Made by a program: the position numbers and the translations under genes
Notes under the pieces: generated by a model
The model's database searches: none
What the model saw: only the letters and a program-made list of their open reading frames with translations
Told to the model about the DNA's origin: nothing
Assembly (NCBI GenBank): GCA_001805055.1
Contig: MHDZ01000033.1
Location: 4,404 to 68,403 of the forward strand
From: Nitrospirae bacterium GWC2_57_13
GTDB taxonomy: Bacteria > Nitrospirota > UBA9217
Direction of reading: 5' to 3'
DNA length: 64,000 bases
Shown: positions 2,362 to 58,658 of the stretch, in pieces
Layout of the letters: the number at the start of each line of letters is the position of its first letter
Position numbering within the stretch: position 1 is the first letter of the stretch

Positions 2362-4764
2362 ATGAGGGTTTTCCGGAAATATCGTGCGTTTCTCATAATC
2401 CTGGCATCGGTAGGGATCATGCTTGTCCTTGGCGTTGGCGGAATGCTCTTCGCGATGCGCTCCGAGGCGCGCAAGCACCCCATCTACGCCGCTGATGTAA
2501 AGCCGTTCCACTCTCTCCGCATCGCGGACCGGAACGGCGTGCTGCTGCAGGAGGTCCGGAGCCGGGACGGCAGGAGCGCGCCGGTGCGGCTCCGCGCCAT
2601 CTCGCCTCATTTTATTCATGCTGTTCTCGCCGCCGAGGACCGGCGGTTCCGGTCCCACAGCGGTGTGGACTGGCTTGCTGTTGGGCGGGCGGGCGCGATG
2701 AATATTCTGTCCGTCGGCCGCCGCTCAGGAGCCTCTACCATCACGCTCCAACTCGCCAAGATGCTTGATCCCGGGCCCCGCACGCTCGGCAAGAAGATCC
2801 GTGAAGTGAAGGGCGCCTGGCGCATCGAAGCGGGCATGACCAAGGACGAGATCCTGGAGCAGTACATGAGCCGTCTTCCCTTCGGCAATCAGCTCTTCGG
2901 TATCGAGAGCGCTTCCCAGGACTATTTCCGCAAGAAGGCTTCGGACCTGTCCCTTGCCCAGGCCGCTCTCCTTGCCGCTATTCCGAACGCGCCGACCCTG
3001 CTGAACCCCCGCCGGAACCTCGACCTCGTAAATAAACGCCGGACATTCATCCTGGATCGCATGCATTCCCTGGGCTATATTTCCCGGGAGGAGAAAGAGC
3101 TTGCACAGGCCGAACGGATCGAAATCCACGAGCCGGCCCGTCCGCGCAGTGCCCCTCATTTCATCGAGCGGCTGCAGACAGACCTGCCCGCACCAATAAC
3201 CCGTGTCACCGCAACGCTGAACGCGCGGCTGCAGGCAGCAGTGGAGCAGCAGGTGAAAGAGGTGATCGACGAACTGAAGGGCAGAGTGGTGACGAACGCG
3301 GCAGTGCTTGTGCTTGAGAACCGTACCGGAGAGGTGCTCGCTTACGTGGGTTCTGCGGATTTTGATGATCACGGAAATGAAGGCCAGAACGACGGCGTGC
3401 AGGCCCTGCGTCAGCCCGGCTCGGCCTTGAAACCCTTTATCTACGGGCTGGCGCTTGAAAAGGGGATGTCGCCGGCTACGATGCTGGATGATCTGGAGGT
3501 TCATTTCTCGACGCCTGTAGGAGATTTCTCTCCTCAGAACTACAGCCGCAGGTTTCACGGCCCGGTGCGGCTGCGTGAGGCCCTTGGCAATTCGCTGAAC
3601 GTGCCGGCAGTGCGCGTTATCGCCGAATTGGGCACTGATGCGGCCCTGGCGCGGCTGCGGGATTTCGGTTTCCAGACCCTTGATGCCGATGCAGAGCACT
3701 ATGGCGTGGGACTCATCCTGGGCGACGGCGAGGTGACGCTCTATGAATTGACCAGGGCCTATATGTATCTTGCGCGCGGTGGTTCGATCATTCCGGTGCG
3801 GGAGGTTCTGGTGCAGGCAACGGCGATCATGGCGAAGGGGAGACAAAGCGACGGGGAGCGTGAGAAAAGAATGAAGAGCGCCCCCCTGCGCGTATCCACG
3901 CCGGAAGCGGTCTATCTTATCACCGACATCCTGAAAGATCCCTATGCGCGTACCACTGAGTTCGGGCTCGATTCCGTGCTGCGACTGCCCTTTCCCGCTG
4001 CGGTCAAGACGGGCACGTCGCGCAACTATCGCGACAACTGGACCGTGGGATACACCCGTGAATACACGGTCGGCGTCTGGGTCGGCAATTTCAACGGCGT
4101 TCCCATGCAGCAGGTGGCTGGCGTGAGCGGCGCCGGGCCGATCTTCCGGCGGGTCATGATGCTGCTGCAGGGTAAGAAGGAGCCTAAGGACTTTGAACGG
4201 CCGTCTGGACTCATCGAGGTGGAGGTCTGCGCCCTGTCAGGGAAGCAGAAGGGTCCGGACTGTCCACACGGCGTTTCAGAGCTGTTTCTCAGGGACGAGG
4301 TTGAGGCCGGCGCAATGGAGCCCTGCGACGTTCACCGCAAACTGCCGGTGCTCGCCGGCAACGGCCAGATCGCTCCAGCAGGAGCCCGGCGCGAGGAAAC
4401 AGAGTACCGCGTTTTTGAGGACCTCCCACCGATCTATGAGTTCTGGCAGCGCGAGACAGGACGGCCTGTCATGCCCAGGGAACTGTCACGCCATGCCGAG
4501 TCGGCCCTGTTCGAGATCATCCGGCCCGCTCACCAGTCTATTTACCGCCGTCCCCTTGACCTGGCTGCCCGCTATCAGACCATTCGCTTCGAGGCTGTGG
4601 GCGCGCCGGGCAGCGCTGAAGTGGTCTGGACCCTGAACAGCGATGAGATCGGGCGCACCCGTGATGCTCATTTCCTTGATTGGCCTGTGCGCACAGGCGA
4701 ATATCGACTTCGGGCCACAGCGCCCGGTGTTCCTGCCAGCGAGATCCGTTTCACGGTGGAATGA
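2362..4764 (+). CDS. pbpC: penicillin-binding protein 1C (bifunctional GT51 transglycosylase / transpeptidase)
   Basis: N-terminal TM segment. GT51 motifs (EDRRF, RxxSGxDW, ITLQL). A transpeptidase domain and a PbpC-type C-terminal domain follow. It is paired with the A2M gene. Confidence 0.85.
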   Translation: MRVFRKYRAFLIILASVGIMLVLGVGGMLFAMRSEARKHPIYAADVKPFHSLRIADRNGVLLQEVRSRDGRSAPVRLRAISPHFIHAVLAAEDRRFRSHSGVDWLAVGRAGAMNILSVGRRSGASTITLQLAKMLDPGPRTLGKKIREVKGAWRIEAGMTKDEILEQYMSRLPFGNQLFGIESASQDYFRKKASDLSLAQAALLAAIPNAPTLLNPRRNLDLVNKRRTFILDRMHSLGYISREEKELAQAERIEIHEPARPRSAPHFIERLQTDLPAPITRVTATLNARLQAAVEQQVKEVIDELKGRVVTNAAVLVLENRTGEVLAYVGSADFDDHGNEGQNDGVQALRQPGSALKPFIYGLALEKGMSPATMLDDLEVHFSTPVGDFSPQNYSRRFHGPVRLREALGNSLNVPAVRVIAELGTDAALARLRDFGFQTLDADAEHYGVGLILGDGEVTLYELTRAYMYLARGGSIIPVREVLVQATAIMAKGRQSDGEREKRMKSAPLRVSTPEAVYLITDILKDPYARTTEFGLDSVLRLPFPAAVKTGTSRNYRDNWTVGYTREYTVGVWVGNFNGVPMQQVAGVSGAGPIFRRVMMLLQGKKEPKDFERPSGLIEVEVCALSGKQKGPDCPHGVSELFLRDEVEAGAMEPCDVHRKLPVLAGNGQIAPAGARREETEYRVFEDLPPIYEFWQRETGRPVMPRELSRHAESALFEIIRPAHQSIYRRPLDLAARYQTIRFEAVGAPGSAEVVWTLNSDEIGRTRDAHFLDWPVRTGEYRLRATAPGVPASEIRFTVE

Positions 4765-5001
4765 CCTCAACGGCGATCTTTCGCGCAGAGAAATCTATAT
4801 AATTGAAATTTTGGAACAGATTGTCCAAAGGGTCATTAAAGAACGGTTCTCTGTTCAGCGGCTCTAGAACGACTGTTTCGAGATGGAAGATTCCACAGGT
4901 AAAAAAAAGATTTATCTGCAAGAAGTTGCCACAGGCAATAACTTCTGCTACGATTACTCCTATTGTTCATTTCAATTCTTTGTTAAAGGGGGATTAAAGG
5001 T

Positions 5002-6228
5002 ATGATGCACAGATGGTTGTTATCTGCAGCACTGCTGTTCTCCTTTGTTGCAATGCCTGCAGGCGTAGGTGTTGCCGCGCAGAATGCTCCGGCTCAGAAG
5101 CCCGCGGGAGCAAAAGCCGGCGCCGTTACCGTCCAGATCGATAAGACGGAACTGAAGAACGGCGGGACCATCATGATCACAGGCAAGGCGCCGAGGGGCA
5201 AGCCCGTGTTCATCGAGGTGTTTGCCGAGCGGACAGTTCGGGCCTCGCGGTTCGATGCAGATGTGGACAAGGAAACAAAGAAGCGGCCGTACATTTTCTA
5301 TATGACCCATGAAATGCCTGCTTACTACAAAATTTTTGCTCCCAAGGACCGGAAAGAAGCGATAGACAAGGAAAAGAAAGAGGGCAAGAAGTGGTCCGTA
5401 TCGAAGGTCCTGAAGGACACGGGCGCCGACGCTGTTTATTCAGCGCCGACGAAGATCAAGATCGACCGGTATCAGGCCACGCTCGTCGGCAGCATCATAG
5501 GGTCACGGGGGTCGATCATGCCGGCCATGGACGACAAAGATAACGCCCGGCGGTCCATGCAGCTTTTGAAAGCCCGGTTCCGTTCTCTCGACAAGGTGCT
5601 GGGCGCGGCTGTTGACGTGGCCCCTGACGGCAGCTTCAAGGCCGAGGTGAAGATCCGCTCGGGTCTTGCCCCCGGCAAGTACACAATAGTCGCCGCCGTG
5701 GACAAGGCCACGAAGAGCGCTCCCGTCACCTTCGAGAACAAGATCAGCTTTCCCTTGCTGTACCTCAAGAACGGGGGCACGAGCCTGAACCTCATCGGAC
5801 CCTTCTTACTTACCCTGGCCGTGGCTATCTTCGGCGTGCTGATGGGCGCAGGCGGCGGATTTATCCTGAACCCTCTCCTCGTTTCGATCTGGCCCCTGCC
5901 GCACACCATTGTGGCCGGCACGGTCATGCCCACAGTGCTCTTCTCCCAGGGCAGCGGCATCTACAACTACTCCAAGATCAAGTTCATCAGCTGGAAGCTG
6001 GGCGTTGCCATCGGCCTTTCCATGGTCGTGGGCGGATTCATCGGGCCCAAGATGACGGAGCTGATCACCCTTGAACAGTTCAAGTTCGTGTTCGGATGGA
6101 TACTGATCATTCTTGCCGGGCTCATGTTCTGGCAGACAACGCCGAAGTACCTGGCCACGAACAAGAAGGAGCAGGCGATCCTGAAAGAGTTCAAGCGGAA
6201 GGCCGAGGAATCGGCGCGGAAGAAATAA
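5002..6228 (+). CDS. secreted/periplasmic domain protein fused to a TauE/SafE-type 4-TM half-transporter
   Basis: Signal peptide, then a ~260-aa soluble domain. The C-terminus is four TM helices with GAGGGFILNPLL (a TauE/SafE-like glycine motif). Strong RBS AAAGGGGG upstream. Confidence 0.6.
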   Translation: MMHRWLLSAALLFSFVAMPAGVGVAAQNAPAQKPAGAKAGAVTVQIDKTELKNGGTIMITGKAPRGKPVFIEVFAERTVRASRFDADVDKETKKRPYIFYMTHEMPAYYKIFAPKDRKEAIDKEKKEGKKWSVSKVLKDTGADAVYSAPTKIKIDRYQATLVGSIIGSRGSIMPAMDDKDNARRSMQLLKARFRSLDKVLGAAVDVAPDGSFKAEVKIRSGLAPGKYTIVAAVDKATKSAPVTFENKISFPLLYLKNGGTSLNLIGPFLLTLAVAIFGVLMGAGGGFILNPLLVSIWPLPHTIVAGTVMPTVLFSQGSGIYNYSKIKFISWKLGVAIGLSMVVGGFIGPKMTELITLEQFKFVFGWILIILAGLMFWQTTPKYLATNKKEQAILKEFKRKAEESARKK

Positions 6229-9985: not shown

Positions 9986-10014
9986 TTGACAGTGAACGTT
10001 CGTTCACCTATAAT
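9986..10014 (+). promoter_or_regulatory. lexA promoter with a putative LexA operator in the spacer
   Basis: TTGACA (9986-9991), a 17-nt spacer, then TATAAT (10009-14). The spacer GTGAACGTTCGTTCACC contains a perfect 6-bp inverted repeat GTGAAC-N4-GTTCAC, which is a Cheo-type GAAC-N4-GTTC. Confidence 0.6.
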
Positions 10015-10116
10015 AAAAAAACGCCCTCTCCCCTGGAGGGAGAGGGCTGGCCCGCCCCGTATTCCCGCCTGTGCGGGATATCGGGGGTGAAGGGGCTGAA
10101 GGAGGGGAGCGGGAGC

Positions 10117-10710
10117 ATGGTACGGGACGTGGATAAAGACAAGCTGCGGGAGCGGGAGAAGGGCATCGCGCAGTTCTATCATGACCATGGCAGGATGCCG
10201 AGCTTTTCCGAGATCGGCGAGCTGACAGGCCTGCGCTCCAAGAATGCCGTGTCCAAGCTTGTCCGGAAGCTCGAGGACCTGCAGGTGCTGGAACGGGACA
10301 GGACCGGGCGGCTGGTGCCGGGCTCTATCGCATCTTCGGTGCGGGTGCTCGGCACGGTGGAGGCCGGCTTCCCGAGCCCTGCCGAGGAAGAGCTGGCGGA
10401 TACGCTCTCCCTTGACGACCTGCTGATCCAGAACCGGGAGGCGACCTTCCTGCTGAAGGTCTCGGGCGATTCCATGTCCGGCGCCGGCGTGCTGCCCGGC
10501 GACATGGTGATCGTGGACCGGGGGCAGACACCCAAGAGCGGGGACATCGTGATCGCCGAAGTGGACGGCGAGTGGACCATGAAATATCTCCGGAAGCGGG
10601 GGAGCAGCGTGACCCTCGTGGCCGCCAACCCGAAGTATCAGCCCATCACCCCGAAGAACGAGCTCAAGATCGCGGGCGTGGTCACGGCGGTGGTGAGGAA
10701 GTATAAATAG
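10117..10710 (+). CDS. lexA: LexA repressor (S24 peptidase)
   Basis: N-terminal winged HTH. Cleavage-region and S24 motifs (GDSM, MKYL, Ser/Lys dyad). RBS GAAGGAGGGGAG upstream. Confidence 0.9.
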   Translation: MVRDVDKDKLREREKGIAQFYHDHGRMPSFSEIGELTGLRSKNAVSKLVRKLEDLQVLERDRTGRLVPGSIASSVRVLGTVEAGFPSPAEEELADTLSLDDLLIQNREATFLLKVSGDSMSGAGVLPGDMVIVDRGQTPKSGDIVIAEVDGEWTMKYLRKRGSSVTLVAANPKYQPITPKNELKIAGVVTAVVRKYK

Positions 10711-10796
10711 GTTTGACGCGGAGATGGGGAGACAAGGGAGACGCGAAGAGAGGCAAAAAATCGTTCTCGCGCAAAGGCGCAAGAACTATATTTCCC

Positions 10797-10824
10797 TTGA
10801 ATAACATCCGGAAAATACTATAAT
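10797..10824 (+). promoter_or_regulatory. putative sigma70 promoter inside the AT-rich islet
   Basis: TTGAAT, a 16-nt spacer, then TATAAT. It points toward brnT/brnA. Confidence 0.35.
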
Positions 10825-10969
10825 AAAAACGTAACTACTCAGGTCAATTATATGTCACAGGAGGGATAAAAGGCTTTCCGCTTGCTCTATTTGAGCCCTG
10901 CTCTTTTTAAAACTCTTGCCCCCATATAAACTGTGATAAGCTGAATCGAGTAGCTTGAAAAGGTGGTAA

Positions 10970-11489
<520 letters not shown>

Positions 11490-11562
11490 CTTCGCATTAT
11501 TCCGACCCAAGATAAGAGGAAGTAAGACTGTCGCCCTTATATCAACCGGTAAGAGGTTGCTC

Positions 11563-11943
11563 ATGAAAAAAATAAAAGTGTTGGCAATCGCTTTGTTAAT
11601 GTTTGTTGGCAACATGAATATTTCTATCGCGACAACTGAGGTAGAAACAAAGGAAGAAACACTGAATTACATTCGTGTATTGTTCTCGGATAAAAAAGTA
11701 ATCGAAACATACCAAAAACTCATTTCCGAAGGATATTCGTGGCAGGACGAATATGCCAATTTTGGTTCAATGGTCGATGAAAAGCATGAAAGTTTTTACG
11801 GGCAAGTTCAGATAGTGATGGAGAAAGACAAAGGGGCGAAACGTAACAAGGTTGGCGAGAGGAGAGTGCTGGTTGTTGATTTTCTTTGGAGTAGAATAGG
11901 CAATAAAATAGAAAATATTAAAGTCGGAACGTATTCACAATAG
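11563..11943 (+). CDS. secreted hypothetical protein (AT-rich, likely foreign)
   Basis: Signal peptide MKKIKVLAIALLMFVGNMNISIA. Codon usage is low-GC, unlike the neighbouring genes. Confidence 0.45.
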   Translation: MKKIKVLAIALLMFVGNMNISIATTEVETKEETLNYIRVLFSDKKVIETYQKLISEGYSWQDEYANFGSMVDEKHESFYGQVQIVMEKDKGAKRNKVGERRVLVVDFLWSRIGNKIENIKVGTYSQ

Positions 11944-12205
11944 TACCAAAGATAGTATAGATGAAGATAAAACGGTCTATCTTCTGCCTGATATTACACC
12001 TGATGACGACCAAGAGGCACTGATTCGGGAATTCTATGAGCGTCTTTTTGAAGAACAGCTGAGTGATTGGTGCACTGATGAGTATTCCTGGCCATCGAAA
12101 CGGGACGTAAAGATGTTCAAAGAGTGGTTCGATATAGAATTTCACACCGTTGTTCTTGACCTTGCAGGTGAACCATTGGAGGATGATGAAATAGAGCCGC
12201 AATAG
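11912..12205 (+). pseudogene. gene remnant in the +1 frame relative to the preceding ORF, no ATG
   Basis: An open 97-codon frame encodes ...ALIREFYERLFEEQLSDWCTDEYSWPSKRDVKMFKEWFDIEFH... No start codon and no RBS. AT-rich. Confidence 0.3.
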
Positions 12206-12384
12206 GAACGGGTAGGCATATAATTTCTGACAAGCTGATTTCAACCTGCGGGGCTGTGCCATGGAGCCCCATCCCGGCGCGAAAACTACGCGCCGGGAGA
12301 ACCAGGGGCTTGAAACCGACCCGGAAAAACGGGCGGCTCAGCCCCGCATTCTCATCATGCTTGAACAACCCGGCTTGAAGCGAA

Positions 12385-12478
12385 GTTATCCGTTTTGATC
12401 CGTGTCCACCCCATTAGACCCCGTCAGATCGGTTCTAACGGGGTAAATCCGTGGCCAAATGTTCTTAAAGGTGGATTT
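12385..12478 (-). repeat. miniature copy of the mosaic intergenic repeat (end unit - CCCCGTYAGA..TCTAACGGGG hairpin - end unit)
   Basis: GTTATCCGTTTTGATCCGTGTCC ... CCCCGTCAGATCGGTTCTAACGGGGTAAATCCGTGGCCAAATGTTCTT. It matches both the termini and the hairpin of the full copy at 58346-58634. It abuts the dinB start codon. Confidence 0.6.
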
Positions 12479-12481
12479 CCC

Positions 12482-13795
12482 ATGACCGACCAGCCCCTCA
12501 CCATCCGCTCCTGGCCGAAGGCGATCCTGCACATCGACGCCGACGCCTTTTTTGCCTCCTGCGAGCAGGCGGTCCGTCCCGAGCTTCGCGGCAGGCCCGT
12601 GATCACCGGCAAGGAGCGAGGCATCGTGGCCGCGGCGAGCTACGAGGCCAAGGCCCGGGGCGTGGAGCGGGGCATGCGGCTCTTCGAGGCGAAGAAGGTC
12701 TGTCCCGACGCGGTCATTCTTCCCTCGGACTACGAGACCTACAGCCTTTTTTCGATGCGCATGTTCGAGATCTTCAGGCGCTTCTCGCCCGACGTGGAGG
12801 AGTACTCCATCGACGAGGCCTTCGTGGACCTTACGGGCCTGCGGCGGAGCTTCCACGGGCCCTACTGGATGATCGCGCAGCGGATTCAGGAGACGGTGGC
12901 GCAGGAACTGGGGATCACTGTGTCCGCGGGTCTGAGCCTTTCGAAGGTGCTGGCCAAGATCGGTTCGAAGCACCGCAAGCCCCACGGCCTCACGGTCATT
13001 CCCGGCCGGGAGGTCCATGTCTATCTCAGGGACCTTCCGGTGGAGAAGGTCTGGGGCATCGGGCCGAACACCACGGCCTTTCTCCGGAAGTTCGGCGTTG
13101 TCACGGCCCTCGACCTGGCCCGGAAGGACGAGAAGTTCATCGAACAACATCTCTCCAAGCCATTTCGCGAGATATGGAACGAGTTGAACGGCCGGAGCAT
13201 GTATCCCGTGGTGACGGAGCCGAAGAACAGCTACCAGTCCATCAGCAAGGCGCGGACCTTCACCCCGCCGTCGAACGACGAGGCTTTTGTCTTTGCCCAG
13301 CTTGCGAAGAACCTGGAGAATGCCTGCATCAAGGCGCGGCGCTATCAGCTTGCGGCGGCGCGGCTTGTCGTGTTCCTCAGGCGCCAGGATTTTCAGGACC
13401 GGGGCGTGGAGATCAGGCTGAGCCGCCCCACCTCCTATCCCGCCGAGCTTTTCGAGCCGTTGCGGCAAGGCTTCCGGCAGCTCTACGCGCCGGCCGACCT
13501 CTACCGCCAGACCGGCGTGGTGCTCGGAGGCCTGGTGCCCGAGGGTTCTGTTCAGTACACGCTCTTCGATGATACGGCGAAGATCGAGAAGATGGCCAGG
13601 GTCTACGGCGCGGTGGATGAGCTGTCCCGGAAGTTCGGCAAGCATGCCATTCAGCACGCGGCGAGCCTGCCGGCCAAGCTGCAGGCCCGGCACGAGGGCG
13701 AGCGGGGAGATGTTCCGGAACGGAAGGCGCAGCTCTTTCGCGGTGAGAACAGCAGGCAGCGTCTGGGTCTGCCGCTGTTGCGGGTGAAGGTGTAA
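12482..13795 (+). CDS. dinB: Y-family DNA polymerase (DinB-type; ImuB not excluded)
   Basis: ILHIDADAFFASCEQ and PVITG...RGIVAAASYEAKARGV are the canonical Y-family N-terminal motifs, followed by little-finger-like regions. It lies near lexA. Confidence 0.85.
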   Translation: MTDQPLTIRSWPKAILHIDADAFFASCEQAVRPELRGRPVITGKERGIVAAASYEAKARGVERGMRLFEAKKVCPDAVILPSDYETYSLFSMRMFEIFRRFSPDVEEYSIDEAFVDLTGLRRSFHGPYWMIAQRIQETVAQELGITVSAGLSLSKVLAKIGSKHRKPHGLTVIPGREVHVYLRDLPVEKVWGIGPNTTAFLRKFGVVTALDLARKDEKFIEQHLSKPFREIWNELNGRSMYPVVTEPKNSYQSISKARTFTPPSNDEAFVFAQLAKNLENACIKARRYQLAAARLVVFLRRQDFQDRGVEIRLSRPTSYPAELFEPLRQGFRQLYAPADLYRQTGVVLGGLVPEGSVQYTLFDDTAKIEKMARVYGAVDELSRKFGKHAIQHAASLPAKLQARHEGERGDVPERKAQLFRGENSRQRLGLPLLRVKV

Positions 13796-13802
13796 ACCTG
13801 AA

Positions 13803-14012
13803 AAAAGCTTTTTTGACGCGGATAAAATCTGGAATGGCGGATAAGGACAGAAAAAAATGTTTTTTATATTGAAAAAGAATCGTCTTTGAGGTGAAAACGC
13901 TTTCTGCATAAATTCTGGAGTGAGCGCATTCCCCGTCACGCCAAGGCGGGACTGCGGGGAGCTTCAATGCCTGGTTTTATCTGCGGGAATCTGCGTCCAA
14001 CGGCCGTTTTTA
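13803..14012 (+). repeat. truncated copy of the mosaic intergenic repeat (left terminus present, right terminus absent)
   Basis: TTTTGACGCGGATAAAATC...GATAAGGACAGAAAAAAATG...TTGAAAAAGAATCGTCTTTGAGGTGAAAACG...GAATCTGCGTCCAACGGCCGTTTTTAGG is collinear with the 58346-58540 part of the full copy. Confidence 0.6.
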
Positions 14013-14046
14013 GGATAAAAGATATGTATCGCAGCCTGGCAGGGCG

Positions 14047-14083
14047 GAAAATTAAAACGCCGGAGGGAAAGCCCCTCCGGCGT
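14047..14083 (-). terminator. rho-independent terminator of the csp-rbp operon
   Basis: CGCCGGAGGG-AAAG-CCCCTCCGGCG hairpin followed by a T-run on the minus strand. Confidence 0.6.
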
Positions 14084-14149
14084 GATGTATTCACAGTAGG
14101 TATGATCGACAAGCCTCGACAGCCGGTCTGAACCAGCGAAGGACGCCTT

Positions 14150-14506
14150 TTATTTCCAGCGGTTTCCGCCACCGCCGCCGCCGCGGTTGTCCCGGTCCCT
14201 GCCGCCGCCACCGCCACCGCCGAAGCCGCCGGACCTGCCACCGCGATCGCTTCGTTCGCGCTGCGGCCTCGCTTCGTTAACGGTGATCGCCCGCGAATCA
14301 TGCGTTGTGCCGTTCAGCGACGCGATCGCCTTCTCGCCTTCATCATCATTCGTCATTTCCACGAAGCCGAACCCTTTTGAGCGGCCCGTGGCAGCATCGG
14401 TGATGATCTTGACGGACGCCACTTCTCCGAAAGGCGTGAATAATTCCTTTATTCCGTCTTCCGTTGCCGAATACGATAAATTCCCCACGTAAAGCCTTTT
14501 TGCCAT
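14150..14506 (-). CDS. RRM-type glycine-rich RNA-binding protein
   Basis: RNP2 LYVGNL and RNP1 KGFGFVEM, then a Gly/Arg-rich tail. Confidence 0.85.
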   Translation of the reverse strand: MAKRLYVGNLSYSATEDGIKELFTPFGEVASVKIITDAATGRSKGFGFVEMTNDDEGEKAIASLNGTTHDSRAITVNEARPQRERSDRGGRSGGFGGGGGGGRDRDNRGGGGGGNRWK

Positions 14507-14561
14507 GATCTCCTCCGCGCCTGTGCGCTCTTGTTTCGGTGAAACTCCGCCTGGTGATGTA

Positions 14562-14762
14562 TCAGAGTTTTACGACGTTAACTGCCTGAAGACCCTTGGG
14601 ACCCTGTTCGAGGTCGAAGCTCACGGAATCACCCTCTGCCAGAGACTTGAAGCCCTCGCCCTTGATCGACGAAAAGTGAACGAATACGTCCTTTGCTTCG
14701 TCGGTCGTGATGAATCCAAATCCTTTTGAATCATTGAACCATTTTACCGTACCATTCGGCAT
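14562..14762 (-). CDS. cold-shock protein (CspA family)
   Basis: [18 protein letters not shown] and VFVHFSSI are canonical CSD motifs. 66 aa. RBS GGAGGAG upstream. Confidence 0.9.
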
Positions 14763-18617: not shown

Positions 18618-18639
18618 GGTAGAATTCCCCATTTCAATG

Positions 18640-18838
18640 ATCCTAGAAACGGCAGTTGGCCGCAGATTCACCCCGTTAGAAATAAGAATCTGCTAACGGG
18701 GTAAACGCAGATTTTTGCAGATTAAACCAGGCATTCGGACAGAAAGGGCATTCACCCCAAAGGGGATTCTTTTTCAACAGCAATTTTTTTGTCTGTTTTT
18801 ATCTGATCTTATCGGATGTTATCCGCGTCCAAATGTTC
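18640..18838 (-). repeat. truncated inverted copy of the mosaic intergenic repeat between the DAHP synthase gene and tyrA
   Basis: The reverse complement matches 58346-58540 almost base for base (AAGAACATTTGGACGCGGATAACATCCGATAAGATCAGATAAAAACAG...CCCCGTTAGCAGATTCTTATTTCTAACGGGGTGAATCTGCGGCCAACTGCCGTTTCTAGG). Confidence 0.7.
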
Positions 18839-18926
18839 TTTTCAGGATGATCGAAAGTGTTTTGGATTTTGGTTGTTGAAAAATTTTGTCGTTTGATTCT
18901 TGGACCCTGGAATATATAAAAAAGCT

Positions 18927-50368: not shown

Positions 50369-50467
50369 TGGCGGGAGAGCATGAGAATCGAACTCACCTT
50401 CCCCAGCGCAGGCTGAGGAACAACGGATTTGAAGTCCGGGACGGGCACCAGCTCCGTACGCTCTCCC
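50369..50467 (-). tRNA. selC: tRNA-Sec (anticodon UCA), CCA encoded
   Basis: Folded by hand from GGGAGAGCGTACGGAGCTGGTGCCCGTCCCGGACTTCAAATCCGTTGTTCCTCAGCCTGCGCTGGGGAAGGTGAGTTCGATTCTCATGCTCTCCCGCCA. It has an 8-bp acceptor stem, the anticodon arm GGACUUCAAAUCC shared with E. coli selC, a long variable arm and a GTTCGATTC T-loop. Confidence 0.85.
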
Positions 50468-58250: not shown

Positions 58251-58345
58251 TTCTGCAAAACCGAGAAAGGGCAGTTGGAACCACGGATGAACACTGTCAA
58301 GGCCGTAAGGCAAGGCTTATATCGGACGCTTCATCATGAAAAGAG

Positions 58346-58634
58346 CATTTGGACGCGGATAAAATCCGATAAGATCGGATAAAAAAAGACAAACAACTCT
58401 TTTGCTGTTGAAAATGAATCACCTTTGGGGTGAAGGCCCTTTCTGTCCGAATGCTGGGTTTTACCCAAGAAAAGCTGCGTTCACCCCGTTAGAAGATTCG
58501 TATTTCTAACGGGGTGAATCTGCGGCCAACTGCCGTTTTCAGGTGCATTCGTTCGGTGATGTTGTTTATTCGGAGAACGTTTTGCACTATCCGTCCTTAT
58601 CCGCTGTTTTCGATTTTATCCGTGTCCAATAACG
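58346..58634 (+). repeat. full-length mosaic MITE-like intergenic element with ~34-bp imperfect terminal inverted repeats
   Basis: Left TIR TTGGACGCGGATAAAATCCGATAAGATCGGATAA. Right TIR (reverse complement) TTGGACACGGATAAAATCGAAAACAGCGGATAA. Internal hairpin CCCCGTTAGAAGATTCGTATTTCTAACGGGG. It lies between convergent genes, and three related copies are elsewhere in the window. Confidence 0.7.
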
Positions 58635-58658
58635 TTTTTCCGGTTTTACTGCTTCCGA

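Follow-up and report, generated by a model that had tools for sequence, protein, structure and literature searches.

The dinB gene of a groundwater Nitrospirota bacterium is located between two members of a dispersed repeat family. This arrangement raises the question whether the gene is carried by the repeats, is controlled by them or has merely been neighboured by them. The original prediction had read it as a composite mobile cassette formed by two copies in opposite orientations. The stretch analysed here, referred to as the window, comprises 64 kb; its features relevant to the question are compiled in Table 1. The gene belongs to 5659 homologues, which are labelled DNA polymerase IV by their sources.

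Table 1. Features of the lexA-dinB region and family members in the 64-kb window.
Feature	Position	Strand	Evidence or remark
lexA promoter TTGACA-17-TATAAT with Cheo-type LexA box (GTGAACGTTCGTTCAC)	9986-10014	+	sequence scan
lexA, Peptidase_S24, 197 aa	10117-10710	+	gene calls on identical contigs
AT-rich foreign island, ~1.7 kb	10711-12384	+	G+C 37-46% versus 64-67% in lexA and dinB
Island: brnT	10976-11248		Pfam BrnT_toxin
Island: brnA-like	11235-11489		
Island: orf126	11563-11943		
Island: truncated gene fragment	11930-12205		
Island: GC-rich structured segment	12247-12350		fold z = -5.7
MITE fragment, solo B-type end	12385-12471	-	blastn to 18k/58k copies; local alignment
Shine-Dalgarno AAGGTGGA	12468-12475	+	straddles MITE/native junction
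dinB, DNA polymerase IV, 437 aa	12482-13795 (ATG 12482, stop 13793-13795)	+	Pfam PF00817 IMS and PF11799 IMS_C
Complete MITE, 218 nt	13797-14014	-	A-type end 13797, B-type end 14014
MITE, reference copy	18642-18846	+	between DAHP-synthase gene and tyrA; blastn, terminus profile
MITE	58335-58543	-	86% identical to 18.6-kb copy; duplication TTCAT / TGCAT (4/5)
Solo A-type end, older family copy	58549-58643	-	abuts 58-kb MITE; inverted-repeat and blastn matches

As predicted, a dispersed family exists in the window, with four loci and one member on each side of dinB. Six ends were recovered by a terminus profile derived from other genomes (nhmmer, E 2e-10 to 2e-3). The reference copy is framed by the perfect target duplication ATGAT (18637-18641 and 18847-18851) and is located 80 nt upstream of the tyrA start codon (18927). 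The terminus reported before tyrA is present (TCCGCGTCCAAATGTTCTTTTCAGG) at 18822-18846. Approximately 4 of the approximately 65 intergenic gaps carry repeats, and by our estimate the probability that two adjacent gaps do so by chance is about 0.18, so that the bracketing of dinB is unremarkable in itself.

The family consists of non-coding elements that measure approximately 145-350 nt and are bounded by terminal inverted repeats (TIRs), which are imperfect and span about 30 nt (CCTGAAAAAAGCATTTGGACGCGGATAAAATC). Neither the 30 complete copies (145-352 nt, mode 176 nt) nor those of the window (205, 209, and 218 nt) are long enough to encode a transposase. In the terminus profile alignment, A and B ends can be aligned over about 30 nt (CCTnAAAA-N5-6-TTGGnC-RCRGA). 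A subterminal RCRGAT(A/T)A motif occurs in 2-4 copies at each end, and the middle is a mosaic of variable hairpin modules, among which a small CACC-loop-GGTG hairpin is conserved inside many copies. The target duplication comprises 5 bp with the consensus WTNAW. The flanking 5-mers are identical at all five positions in 17 of the 30 complete copies and at four positions in 8, compared to 3% and 19%, respectively, in mismatched-pair controls. A short, non-coding sequence with TIRs, a fixed 5-bp duplication and many dispersed copies supports a mobile element of the MITE kind. Rfam contained no relevant match, neither at gathering thresholds over the window, tRNA-Sec excepted, nor for the repeat at E<=10 on positions 11900-14150 and on the metagenome loci.

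An exact-19-mer scan across 185,579 genomes returned 88 stretches, of which about 60 belong to Nitrospirota MAGs, with up to about 36 of these stretches in one such MAG and 13 in another. Related ends also occur in MAGs of the Desulfuromonadales and Ratteibacteria. Family copies are found in either orientation at non-orthologous sites, and many of them are situated at contig ends, where the assemblies break. Orthologous insertions have been kept across species at 85-90% identity (L033/L045 and L044/L099). In the search for an autonomous partner, blastn against plasmids was negative, and a scan of viral contigs gave no more than one chance match within a coding region.

In the 758 kb of family loci compared, no autonomous element with matching ends was detected, and for this reason we can only infer mobilisation in trans. 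TIR pairs 0.45-7 kb apart did not reveal such a partner, nor did an all-versus-all megablast of the loci for repeats of at least 400 nt. The ORFs inside L080 2863-5136 and beside unpaired ends represent ordinary genes (DNA polymerase I, a chromate-transporter-like protein, thioredoxin, and others) and no transposase partner. A 4.9-kb TIR pair with equal flanks in L045 was rejected, as it resolves into clustered, separate MITEs. The insertion sequence upstream of dinB in L013, which encodes the only PF13701 transposase in the compared loci (L013 4421-5884), was rejected as well due to its ends (GTAGGTCGGGTAGAGCG...), which are unrelated to the family; a tblastn search with its transposase found no relatives in the other loci.

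The copy downstream of dinB had been described as truncated, on the plus strand and 8 nt away from the stop codon. It is instead complete with both termini, is located on the minus strand and begins 1 nt past the stop. The terminus profile from other genomes detects both of its ends (E 1.6e-6 at 14014 and 2e-3 at 13797-13856), and it aligns to the reference copies only as reverse complement (69-108 versus 19-22; shuffle maximum 28). Its termini pair in the predicted fold of the element. The duplication is preserved at four of five positions (GTAAA, 13792-13796, and ATAAA, 14015-14019), and the stop codon TAA of dinB is part of the GTAAA sequence.

In case of the upstream copy, the minus strand was correctly predicted, but its end is located at 12471 (...CTTAAAGG), 10 nt and not 3 nt before the ATG. 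Local alignment scores amount to 38-40 as a minus copy versus 26-30 as a plus copy, with a shuffle maximum of 27. Since both flanking copies align best as minus, they are in direct and not in opposite orientation. The fragment comprises a terminal repeat (...GGCCAAATGTTCTTAAAGG) with its outer end at 12471, a hairpin module (12418-12444) and a second, inner TIR-like core (12386-12409). Only the dinB-proximal end is present, and an outer terminus on the left is lacking. Against the 18k and 58k copies, blastn matches cover 29 nt (86%, E 1e-4) and 20 nt (90%, E 0.02). The whole-window search with the terminus profile from other genomes missed the fragment, and in a restricted profile search the inner TIR-like core alone scored, with a weak 6.5 bits. 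The 24-mer GGCCRCRGATTYACCCCGTTAGAA was found in only 10 metagenome stretches, of which 7 (4 distinct insertions) are family MITEs. The fragment is the weakest member of the family, its membership being suggested by the similarity to the window copies and this one shared 24-mer.

The proposed comparison with related genomes proved informative: relatives with 76-83% identity keep lexA upstream of dinB and lack the two insertions. As in the window, dinB is located downstream of lexA in L011, L012, L103, and L104, i.e., in five lineages, and the lexA gene of the window shares 80% nucleotide identity with those of L011 and L103. In L012 and L104, both genes are adjacent at a distance of 117-119 nt, and L010/L011 show the order lexA...dinB...pheA; neither insertion of the window is present in these loci. 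The neighbours downstream of dinB vary between the relatives. The G+C content of dinB and lexA is alike, and dinB is a resident gene, not cargo. The relative L102 (DinB 95% identical in amino acids; 93% in nucleotides over window positions 12447-13812), possesses terminus remnants at both insertion sites, so both insertions are old. For L011 and L103 (81-83% relatives), an empty-site reconstruction was precluded by flanks that are not alignable beyond the genes.

We therefore regard it as highly probable that dinB is flanked by two old, independent MITE insertions, which constitute ordinary genome litter and not a mobile dinB cassette. Presumably, a DDE-type transposase acts in trans, cuts at the CC...GG termini, inserts the element at WTNAW sites and duplicates 5 bp, and each of the two intergenic regions of dinB would have received a separate insertion. 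The downstream element would have inserted exactly on the stop codon, which was kept owing to the duplication of the target T(G/A)AA. The upstream element would have arrived approximately 10 nt before the ATG, where the AGG at its end and the native TGGA would jointly have kept a Shine-Dalgarno sequence. According to this order of events, both insertions predate the split from the relative with the 95% identical DinB, and the distal half of the upstream copy disappeared later, probably in the course of the insertions and rearrangements that brought the 1.7-kb AT-rich island with brnTA and other genes between lexA and dinB. We assume the present copies to be largely neutral passengers that are transcribed as part of UTRs.

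A scan of the region agrees with the original prediction that no Cheo-type box (GAAC-N4-GTTC) precedes dinB directly. Across the lexA-dinB region a single such box was detected, with its core at 9994-10005 within the lexA promoter, and this combination of promoter and box recurs in front of lexA in L011, L012, L103, and L104. The suggestion that the repeat displaced a LexA box is hence contradicted, since in each of the five lineages the box forms part of the lexA promoter, and the stretch from lexA to dinB is free of such boxes whether repeats are present or not. dinB is best viewed as the resident gene in second place of an ancestral SOS operon, lexA-dinB, with its LexA box in the lexA promoter. 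Approximately 100 nt of hairpin-rich DNA separate this promoter from the lexA ATG. An imperfect terminator-like hairpin with a T-run was noted after lexA (10763-10786) by scan and our own reading.

A regulatory role, in which the upstream end would give dinB a promoter, a 5'UTR structure or a ribosome-binding site and thereby uncouple it from SOS control or modulate this control, with a similar effect on tyrA, is unlikely. It is favoured by the position of the element end, which does abut the ribosome-binding site and contributes its terminal AGG to the 5' part of AAGGTGGA, as the original prediction implied; the core and spacer are not supplied by the repeat. Only the terminal (A)AGG derives from the element, and TGGA and the spacer TTTCCC are native, because GGTG(G/A)A(T/C)TT(C/A)CC-ATG is common to the window and the 81% orthologue of L011, which is devoid of the repeat. 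The corresponding starts read TTGGTGAACTTACC-ATG in L011 and AAGGTGAATTCCCC-ATG in L102, and blastn homology to L010/L011 begins at 12470. About one third of the complete family copies precede a plausible start codon by no more than 100 nt according to a noisy ORF heuristic, and promoters within MITEs are known elsewhere (Correia; reviewed in PMC10969869). However, neither scan nor inspection by eye revealed a sigma-70-like site on the plus strand between 10825 and 12482 or at the tyrA-proximal end. Moreover, dinB is faced by a B-type and tyrA by an A-type end, which speaks against the proposal that the element end donates a promoter. The minimum free energy fold pairs UCCACC of the fragment with GGUGGA of the Shine-Dalgarno sequence, but the fold of 12385-12500 is no better than that of shuffled sequences (z = -0.76), and in the 95% relative L102 the same terminus is preceded by another internal module. 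In favour of a regulatory role, transcription coming from the lexA promoter could be stopped by the hairpin and T-run at 10763-10786.

The island itself allows for a further scenario. Its gene fragment is homologous to L013 843-1178, and the lexA-dinB spacer harbours different inserts in the various genomes: a further family copy (L103), a PDDEXK_3 gene (L011), an insertion sequence (L013), and the toxin-antitoxin island (window). These observations support the view that foreign DNA has repeatedly entered this spacer in related genomes. Of the insertion hotspot near lexA-regulated loci, which had been offered as an alternative, the recurrent invasion is thus retained and the link to LexA regulation is not, as the targets are WTNAW sites genome-wide. 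Quite improbably, the island (1.76 kb) arrived as the cargo of an element with family ends or was inserted into a MITE already present. Its right border is formed by the B-type end (12471), and directly after the lexA stop, at 10712, a 12-mer that agrees with the A-end core at 11/12 positions (TTTGACGCGGAG) is found inverted relative to this B-type end, which is the configuration expected for the two termini of one element. The terminator-like hairpin after lexA would also suit this scenario. As proof of a split or cargo-bearing element this A-end remnant was rejected: 3 such 12-mers occur outside the known copies versus about 2 expected, so the match is not significant. If the scenario were true, MITE-associated DNA would have broken the physical link, and perhaps the transcriptional one, between dinB and its LexA-controlled promoter in this lineage.

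It is very improbable that the family represents, in place of a transposon, a REP/BIME-like repeat encoded by the host or a conserved cis-regulatory or small-RNA motif maintained at these sites. The mosaic, modular structure with hairpins, the CACC-loop-GGTG hairpin conserved in many copies and the retention of copies at orthologous sites in species with 85-93% identity would suit it, but not the 5-bp duplications (5/5 or 4/5) at 25 of the 30 complete copies, the long TIRs, the occurrence in both orientations at non-orthologous sites, the assembly breaks at the copies or the lack of an Rfam match; REP/BIME are furthermore defined as palindromes of 20-40 nt without target duplication, as compared to elements of 145-350 nt. 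The two copies as transposon ends carrying dinB, like TIME-COMP or IS-flanked composites, are extremely improbable: a family member is indeed situated on each side, elsewhere intervening DNA can be mobilised by MITE pairs (TIMEs, PMC4133298) and the downstream neighbours of dinB differ among relatives. Against this, both copies point the same way, an outer (left) terminus is missing from the upstream copy, and a separate duplication (GTAAA/ATAAA) frames the downstream copy. The sequences at the outer borders, GCGAA (12380-12384) and ATAAA (14015-14019), are mismatched. Furthermore, dinB follows lexA in all five lineages and equals it in G+C content, and the 758 kb of family loci contained no TIR pair that encloses cargo and is flanked by a clean duplication.

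Two independent insertions, as favoured here, are mainly of value for annotation. The repeats break Nitrospirota MAG assemblies, with many copies at contig ends, and may be misread as regulatory motifs or as the borders of a cassette. They can insert precisely on stop codons and beside ribosome-binding sites and leave the genes undestroyed. The recorded termini and the 5-bp WTNAW duplication facilitate masking and provide a marker for the comparison of strains and lineages. In addition, a clade is documented with a lexA-dinB operon and a Cheo-type box, the spacer of which repeatedly gathers foreign DNA.

The family belongs to the known kind of elements termed MITEs and implies no new mechanism. 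Correia elements duplicate TA. In common with bacterial MITEs (Correia/CREE of Neisseria, RUP, ERIC, and Nezha; PMC10969869, PMC3184786), the copies are small, non-coding and multi-copy, possess TIRs and a duplication, occupy intergenic sites beside gene starts and stops, and show size variants, truncated copies, nesting, and RNA fold-back. They differ by an unrelated sequence, the 5-bp WTNAW duplication, several subterminal RCRGAT(A/T)A repeats and the Nitrospirota host. No promoter or IHF site was identified in the family elements. Chunjie was reportedly described by Chen et al. 2008. This MITE of Geobacter uraniireducens Rf4 (178-235 bp, 21-bp TIRs, 9-bp direct repeats; PMC3184786, PMC10969869) resembles the family in its size range, its many full and partial copies and its insertion into an operon without destroying it. 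Compared by description, it was rejected as the same family due to its 21-bp TIRs and 9-bp direct repeats versus TIRs of about 30 nt and a 5-bp duplication.

The inverted repeats of the Tn3 family start with GGGG. TIMEs derive from this family, have 38-bp inverted repeats and 5-6-bp duplications in AT-rich targets, and form TIME-COMP composites that in principle can mobilise the intervening DNA (PMC4133298); the 5-bp duplication in AT-rich targets is shared, and TIME-COMP is the precedent for the cassette idea. In contrast, the present ends start with CCTG, which would set them apart from Tn3-family inverted repeats by description, and the dinB pair fails the tests for a composite given above. 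Ends of the IS1380 family begin with CC (ISfinder family table). ISEcp1, a member of this family, generates 5-bp duplications in AT-rich targets such as TATGA (PMC2887853). The 5-bp duplication and the CC ends are thus compatible, although an IS1380-type transposase with family ends is absent from the 758 kb of loci. Finally, the locus resembles lexA-dinB SOS operons with a Cheo-type box in that the box is situated between the -35 and -10 elements and dinB directly follows lexA in the relatives; unlike in these operons, lexA and dinB of the window are separated by the 1.7-kb AT-rich island and the MITE fragment.

On each side of the window's dinB lies an old insertion of one repeat family; the two arose independently, and the gene is not part of a composite cassette. 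Self-comparison revealed this single family at four places, confirming that dinB has a member on either side.

Coordinates of features in the window
Feature	Position	Strand	Remarks
AT-rich island	10711-12205		set in the ancestral lexA-dinB spacer
GC-rich structured segment	12247-12350	+	just upstream of the MITE fragment
Family copy before dinB	12385-12471	- (best alignment)	self-comparison; fragment
dinB	12482-13795	+	437 aa; IMS and IMS_C domains; DNA polymerase IV in the sources
Family copy after dinB	13797-14014	-	self-comparison; orientation from local alignment
Family copy	18642-18846	+	self-comparison
Family copy	58335-58543	-	self-comparison; solo end adjoins at 58549-58643
tRNA-Sec (anticodon TCA)	50369-50467	-	Rfam and ARAGORN

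A scan for the exact terminus 19-mer TTTGGACGCGGATAANATC over one genome per species matched 88 stretches, about 60 of them in Nitrospirota MAGs (about 36 in one, 13 in another), with contig ends frequent; the remaining matches look mostly like chance occurrences within coding DNA. The 30 complete elements extracted from these loci measure 145-352 nt (modal length 176 nt). Their two ends, A (CCTGAAAAAAGCATTTGGACGCGGATAAAATC) and B (CCTAAAAACGGCAGTTGGGACACGGAAAA), are mutually imperfect inverted repeats with recurring RCRGAT(A/T)A motifs and enclose variable hairpin modules. The 5 nt outside both termini are identical in 17 of the 30 elements and match at four of five positions in 8 more, compared to 3% and 19%, respectively, for control flanks paired across different elements; the duplicated target site has the consensus W-T-N-A-W. 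Due to the small size, the terminal inverted repeats (TIRs), the fixed 5-bp target duplication and the many dispersed copies, we define the family as a MITE. It is undescribed yet typical; no description of MITEs in Nitrospirota was found in the literature searched. Insertions are kept at orthologous sites across species with 85-93% nucleotide identity (L033/L045, L044/L099, window/L102), and since the internal modules of these pairs diverge past the first 25-45 nt, module exchange or conversion among copies is suggested.

Within the window, a terminus profile built solely from other genomes' termini recognized six ends (58337, 18846, 14014, 58543, 18642, and 13797-13856; E 2e-10 to 2e-3). Target duplications are perfect for the 18.6-kb copy (ATGAT/ATGAT) and read TTCAT/TGCAT for the 58-kb copy and GTAAA/ATAAA for the copy after dinB, where the left duplicate includes the dinB stop TAA. 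Targets of the family such as TTGAA, CTGAA, TTAAA, and ATAAT carry stop codons naturally, and several copies in other genomes lie at most 1 nt from the stop of a long ORF. The downstream copy, described in the original prediction as truncated and plus-strand, is complete (218 nt, starting 1 nt past the dinB stop) and aligns to the reference copies only in reverse complement (local scores 69-108, in the other direction 19-22; highest shuffle 28); its termini pair with each other in the predicted fold.

Of the upstream copy, about 87 nt are present, with one terminus (...GGCCAAATGTTCTTAAAGG) ending at 12471, thus 10 nt and not 3 nt before the dinB ATG, a hairpin module (ACCCCGTCAGATCGGTTCTAACGGGGT) and a second, inner TIR-like core; the opposite terminus is absent. 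It was undetected by the independent terminus profile in the whole-window search, and with the profile restricted to 10650-12500 only the inner core appeared, weakly (6.5 bits, E 0.022). Its probable family membership is based on its similarity to the other copies in the window (E 1e-4 and 0.02) and on the shared 24-mer GGCCRCRGATTYACCCCGTTAGAA, which occurs in just 10 metagenome stretches, 7 of them (four distinct insertions) family MITEs with the same module. The fragment aligns best as minus (38-40); plus scores of 26-30 still exceed shuffles because of the TIR. Since both flanking copies align best as minus, they share one orientation, contrary to the opposite orientations proposed.

A composite cassette carrying dinB is contradicted by the relatives L011, L012, L103, and L104/L105, where dinB lies downstream of lexA, with no copy at either of the window's two positions in these or in L010 and L013, and by the G+C content of dinB, which equals that of lexA (64-67%). 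The lexA-dinB distance is 117-119 nt in L012 and L104/L105 and 295 nt in L103, where the end of a different family copy lies about 50 nt ahead of the ATG. L011 has a PDDEXK_3 gene in between, and a segment of about 100 nt including the dinB start is duplicated around this gene's end (1600-1700 and 1850-1950). L013, another Nitrospirota MAG, has an IS whose ends are unrelated situated 57 nt upstream of dinB (4294-5944; 487-aa DDE_Tnp_1_4/DDE_Tnp_1 transposase, own inverted repeats GTAGGTCGGGTAGAGCG...); a 155-nt family MITE follows about 4 kb downstream (11272-11426). The closest relative, L102, shares 93% of its nucleotides with window 12447-13812, and since it retains terminus remnants at both dinB positions, both insertions would predate the split; its module upstream of the terminus differs from that of the window, a swap similar to that in L033/L045. 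By our estimate, with about 4 of the window's roughly 65 intergenic gaps carrying repeats, two of them would be neighbours by chance with a probability of ~0.18, so the bracketing requires no special explanation.

The gene order is lexA (10117-10710), brnT/brnA, orf126, dinB, convergent RRM and CSD, pheA, aminotransferase, DAHP synthase, tyrA, and aroA, of which dinB...pheA-aminotransferase-DAHP synthase-tyrA is kept in L010/L011. Identical DinB proteins occur on 12 groundwater-metagenome contigs and in one UBA MAG (GCA_003483085.1), all essentially identical to the window over 11900-14600, and among the named homologues the best come from Nitrospirota. dinB is resident; it is the island of 37-46% G+C at 10.7-12.2 kb that is foreign. 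The island carries a BrnT toxin gene/brnA-like gene, orf126 (with a signal peptide) and, at 11930-12205, the C-terminal part of a gene that lacks its start here and is intact in L013 (843-1178). The GC-rich structured segment has an outer stem (GCGGGGCUG/CAGCCCCGC) around two or three hairpins (fold of 12200-12484: -117.7 kcal/mol, z = -5.7). Rfam gives no match to it even at E<=10, and none of the fetched loci contains a copy. A perfect TATAAT without -35 hexamer is found at 12219-12224. An 11/12 match to the A-end core (TTTGACGCGGAG) at 10712-10723, right after the lexA stop and facing the B end at 12471, is not significant by itself (3 such singletons in the window, about 2 expected).

As noted originally, no Cheo-type LexA box precedes dinB. 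GAAC-N4-GTTC is lacking between lexA and dinB in all five lineages with lexA upstream, which share CTTGACA-GTGAAC-NNNN-GTTCAC-CTATAAT, a perfect sigma-70 lexA promoter with the operator between its hexamers. Since the box occurs only there, dinB is presumably the downstream member of a lexA-dinB SOS operon. Its missing box is ancestral, and the repeat, contrary to an earlier suggestion, displaced nothing. No plus-strand terminator passes the scan in 10014-12482. By eye, lexA is followed by an imperfect hairpin and a T-rich tail (10763-10786), which could be a terminator; a second promoter-like site lies ahead of brnT (10797-10824). About 100 nt of hairpin-rich DNA (10015-10116; e.g., GCCCTCTCCCCTGGAGGGAGAGGGC) separate the lexA -10 hexamer and ATG. 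In L011, L012, L103, and L104, lexA looks leaderless, since its ATG follows about 6 nt after TATAAT.

Of the proposed supply of the dinB ribosome-binding site by the repeat, only the terminal AGG is left to the element. The sequence before the start is ...CCAAATGTTCTTAAAGGTGGATTTCCC-ATG in the window, ...CCCAATGTTCTTAAGGTGAATTCCCC-ATG in L102 (95% DinB identity) and TTGGTGAACTTACC-ATG in L011 (81%), and since L011 lacks the repeat there and homology to L010/L011 starts at 12470, the Shine-Dalgarno core and spacer are native and may represent the target duplicate TGRAT. In the fold of 12385-12500, UCCACC of the fragment pairs with the Shine-Dalgarno sequence, but this fold scores no better than shuffles (z = -0.76). 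Promoter donation to dinB and tyrA is not borne out: the scan found no plus-strand sigma-70-like site in or near the fragment and none in the tyrA-proximal end, and the ends facing the two genes differ (B-type and A-type). The 80 nt between element and tyrA ATG could hold tyrA's own promoter. A regulatory effect, as described for Correia elements (PMC10969869), is possible, with nothing here supporting it.

Transposition would involve a DDE transposase, cut-and-paste or replicative, that binds terminal and subterminal repeats and makes 5-bp staggered cuts at WTNAW. Among the fetched loci and plasmids no transposase partner with matching ends was found. MAGs of Desulfuromonadales and Ratteibacteria as well as AT-rich contigs also contain related ends, so the transposase family is probably widespread. 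The AT-rich contigs L107 (1-1065) and L112 (219-280), evidently from different organisms, carry GGCCRCRGATTYACCCCGTTAGAA and further TIR-core-like sequences (GGCCACGGATTTACACGG and a small palindrome, CCGCAGATTCACCCCC...GGGGGATCTGTGG), which in L107 are arranged around two small ORFs. The superfamily of the element apparently extends across phyla. The CC termini would fit IS1380. The Geobacter MITE Chunjie differs from the present family by 21-bp TIRs and 9-bp repeats (PMC3184786). Duplications of 5 bp in AT-rich targets are made by, among others, IS1380/ISEcp1 (PMC2887853) and Tn3-derived TIMEs (PMC4133298).
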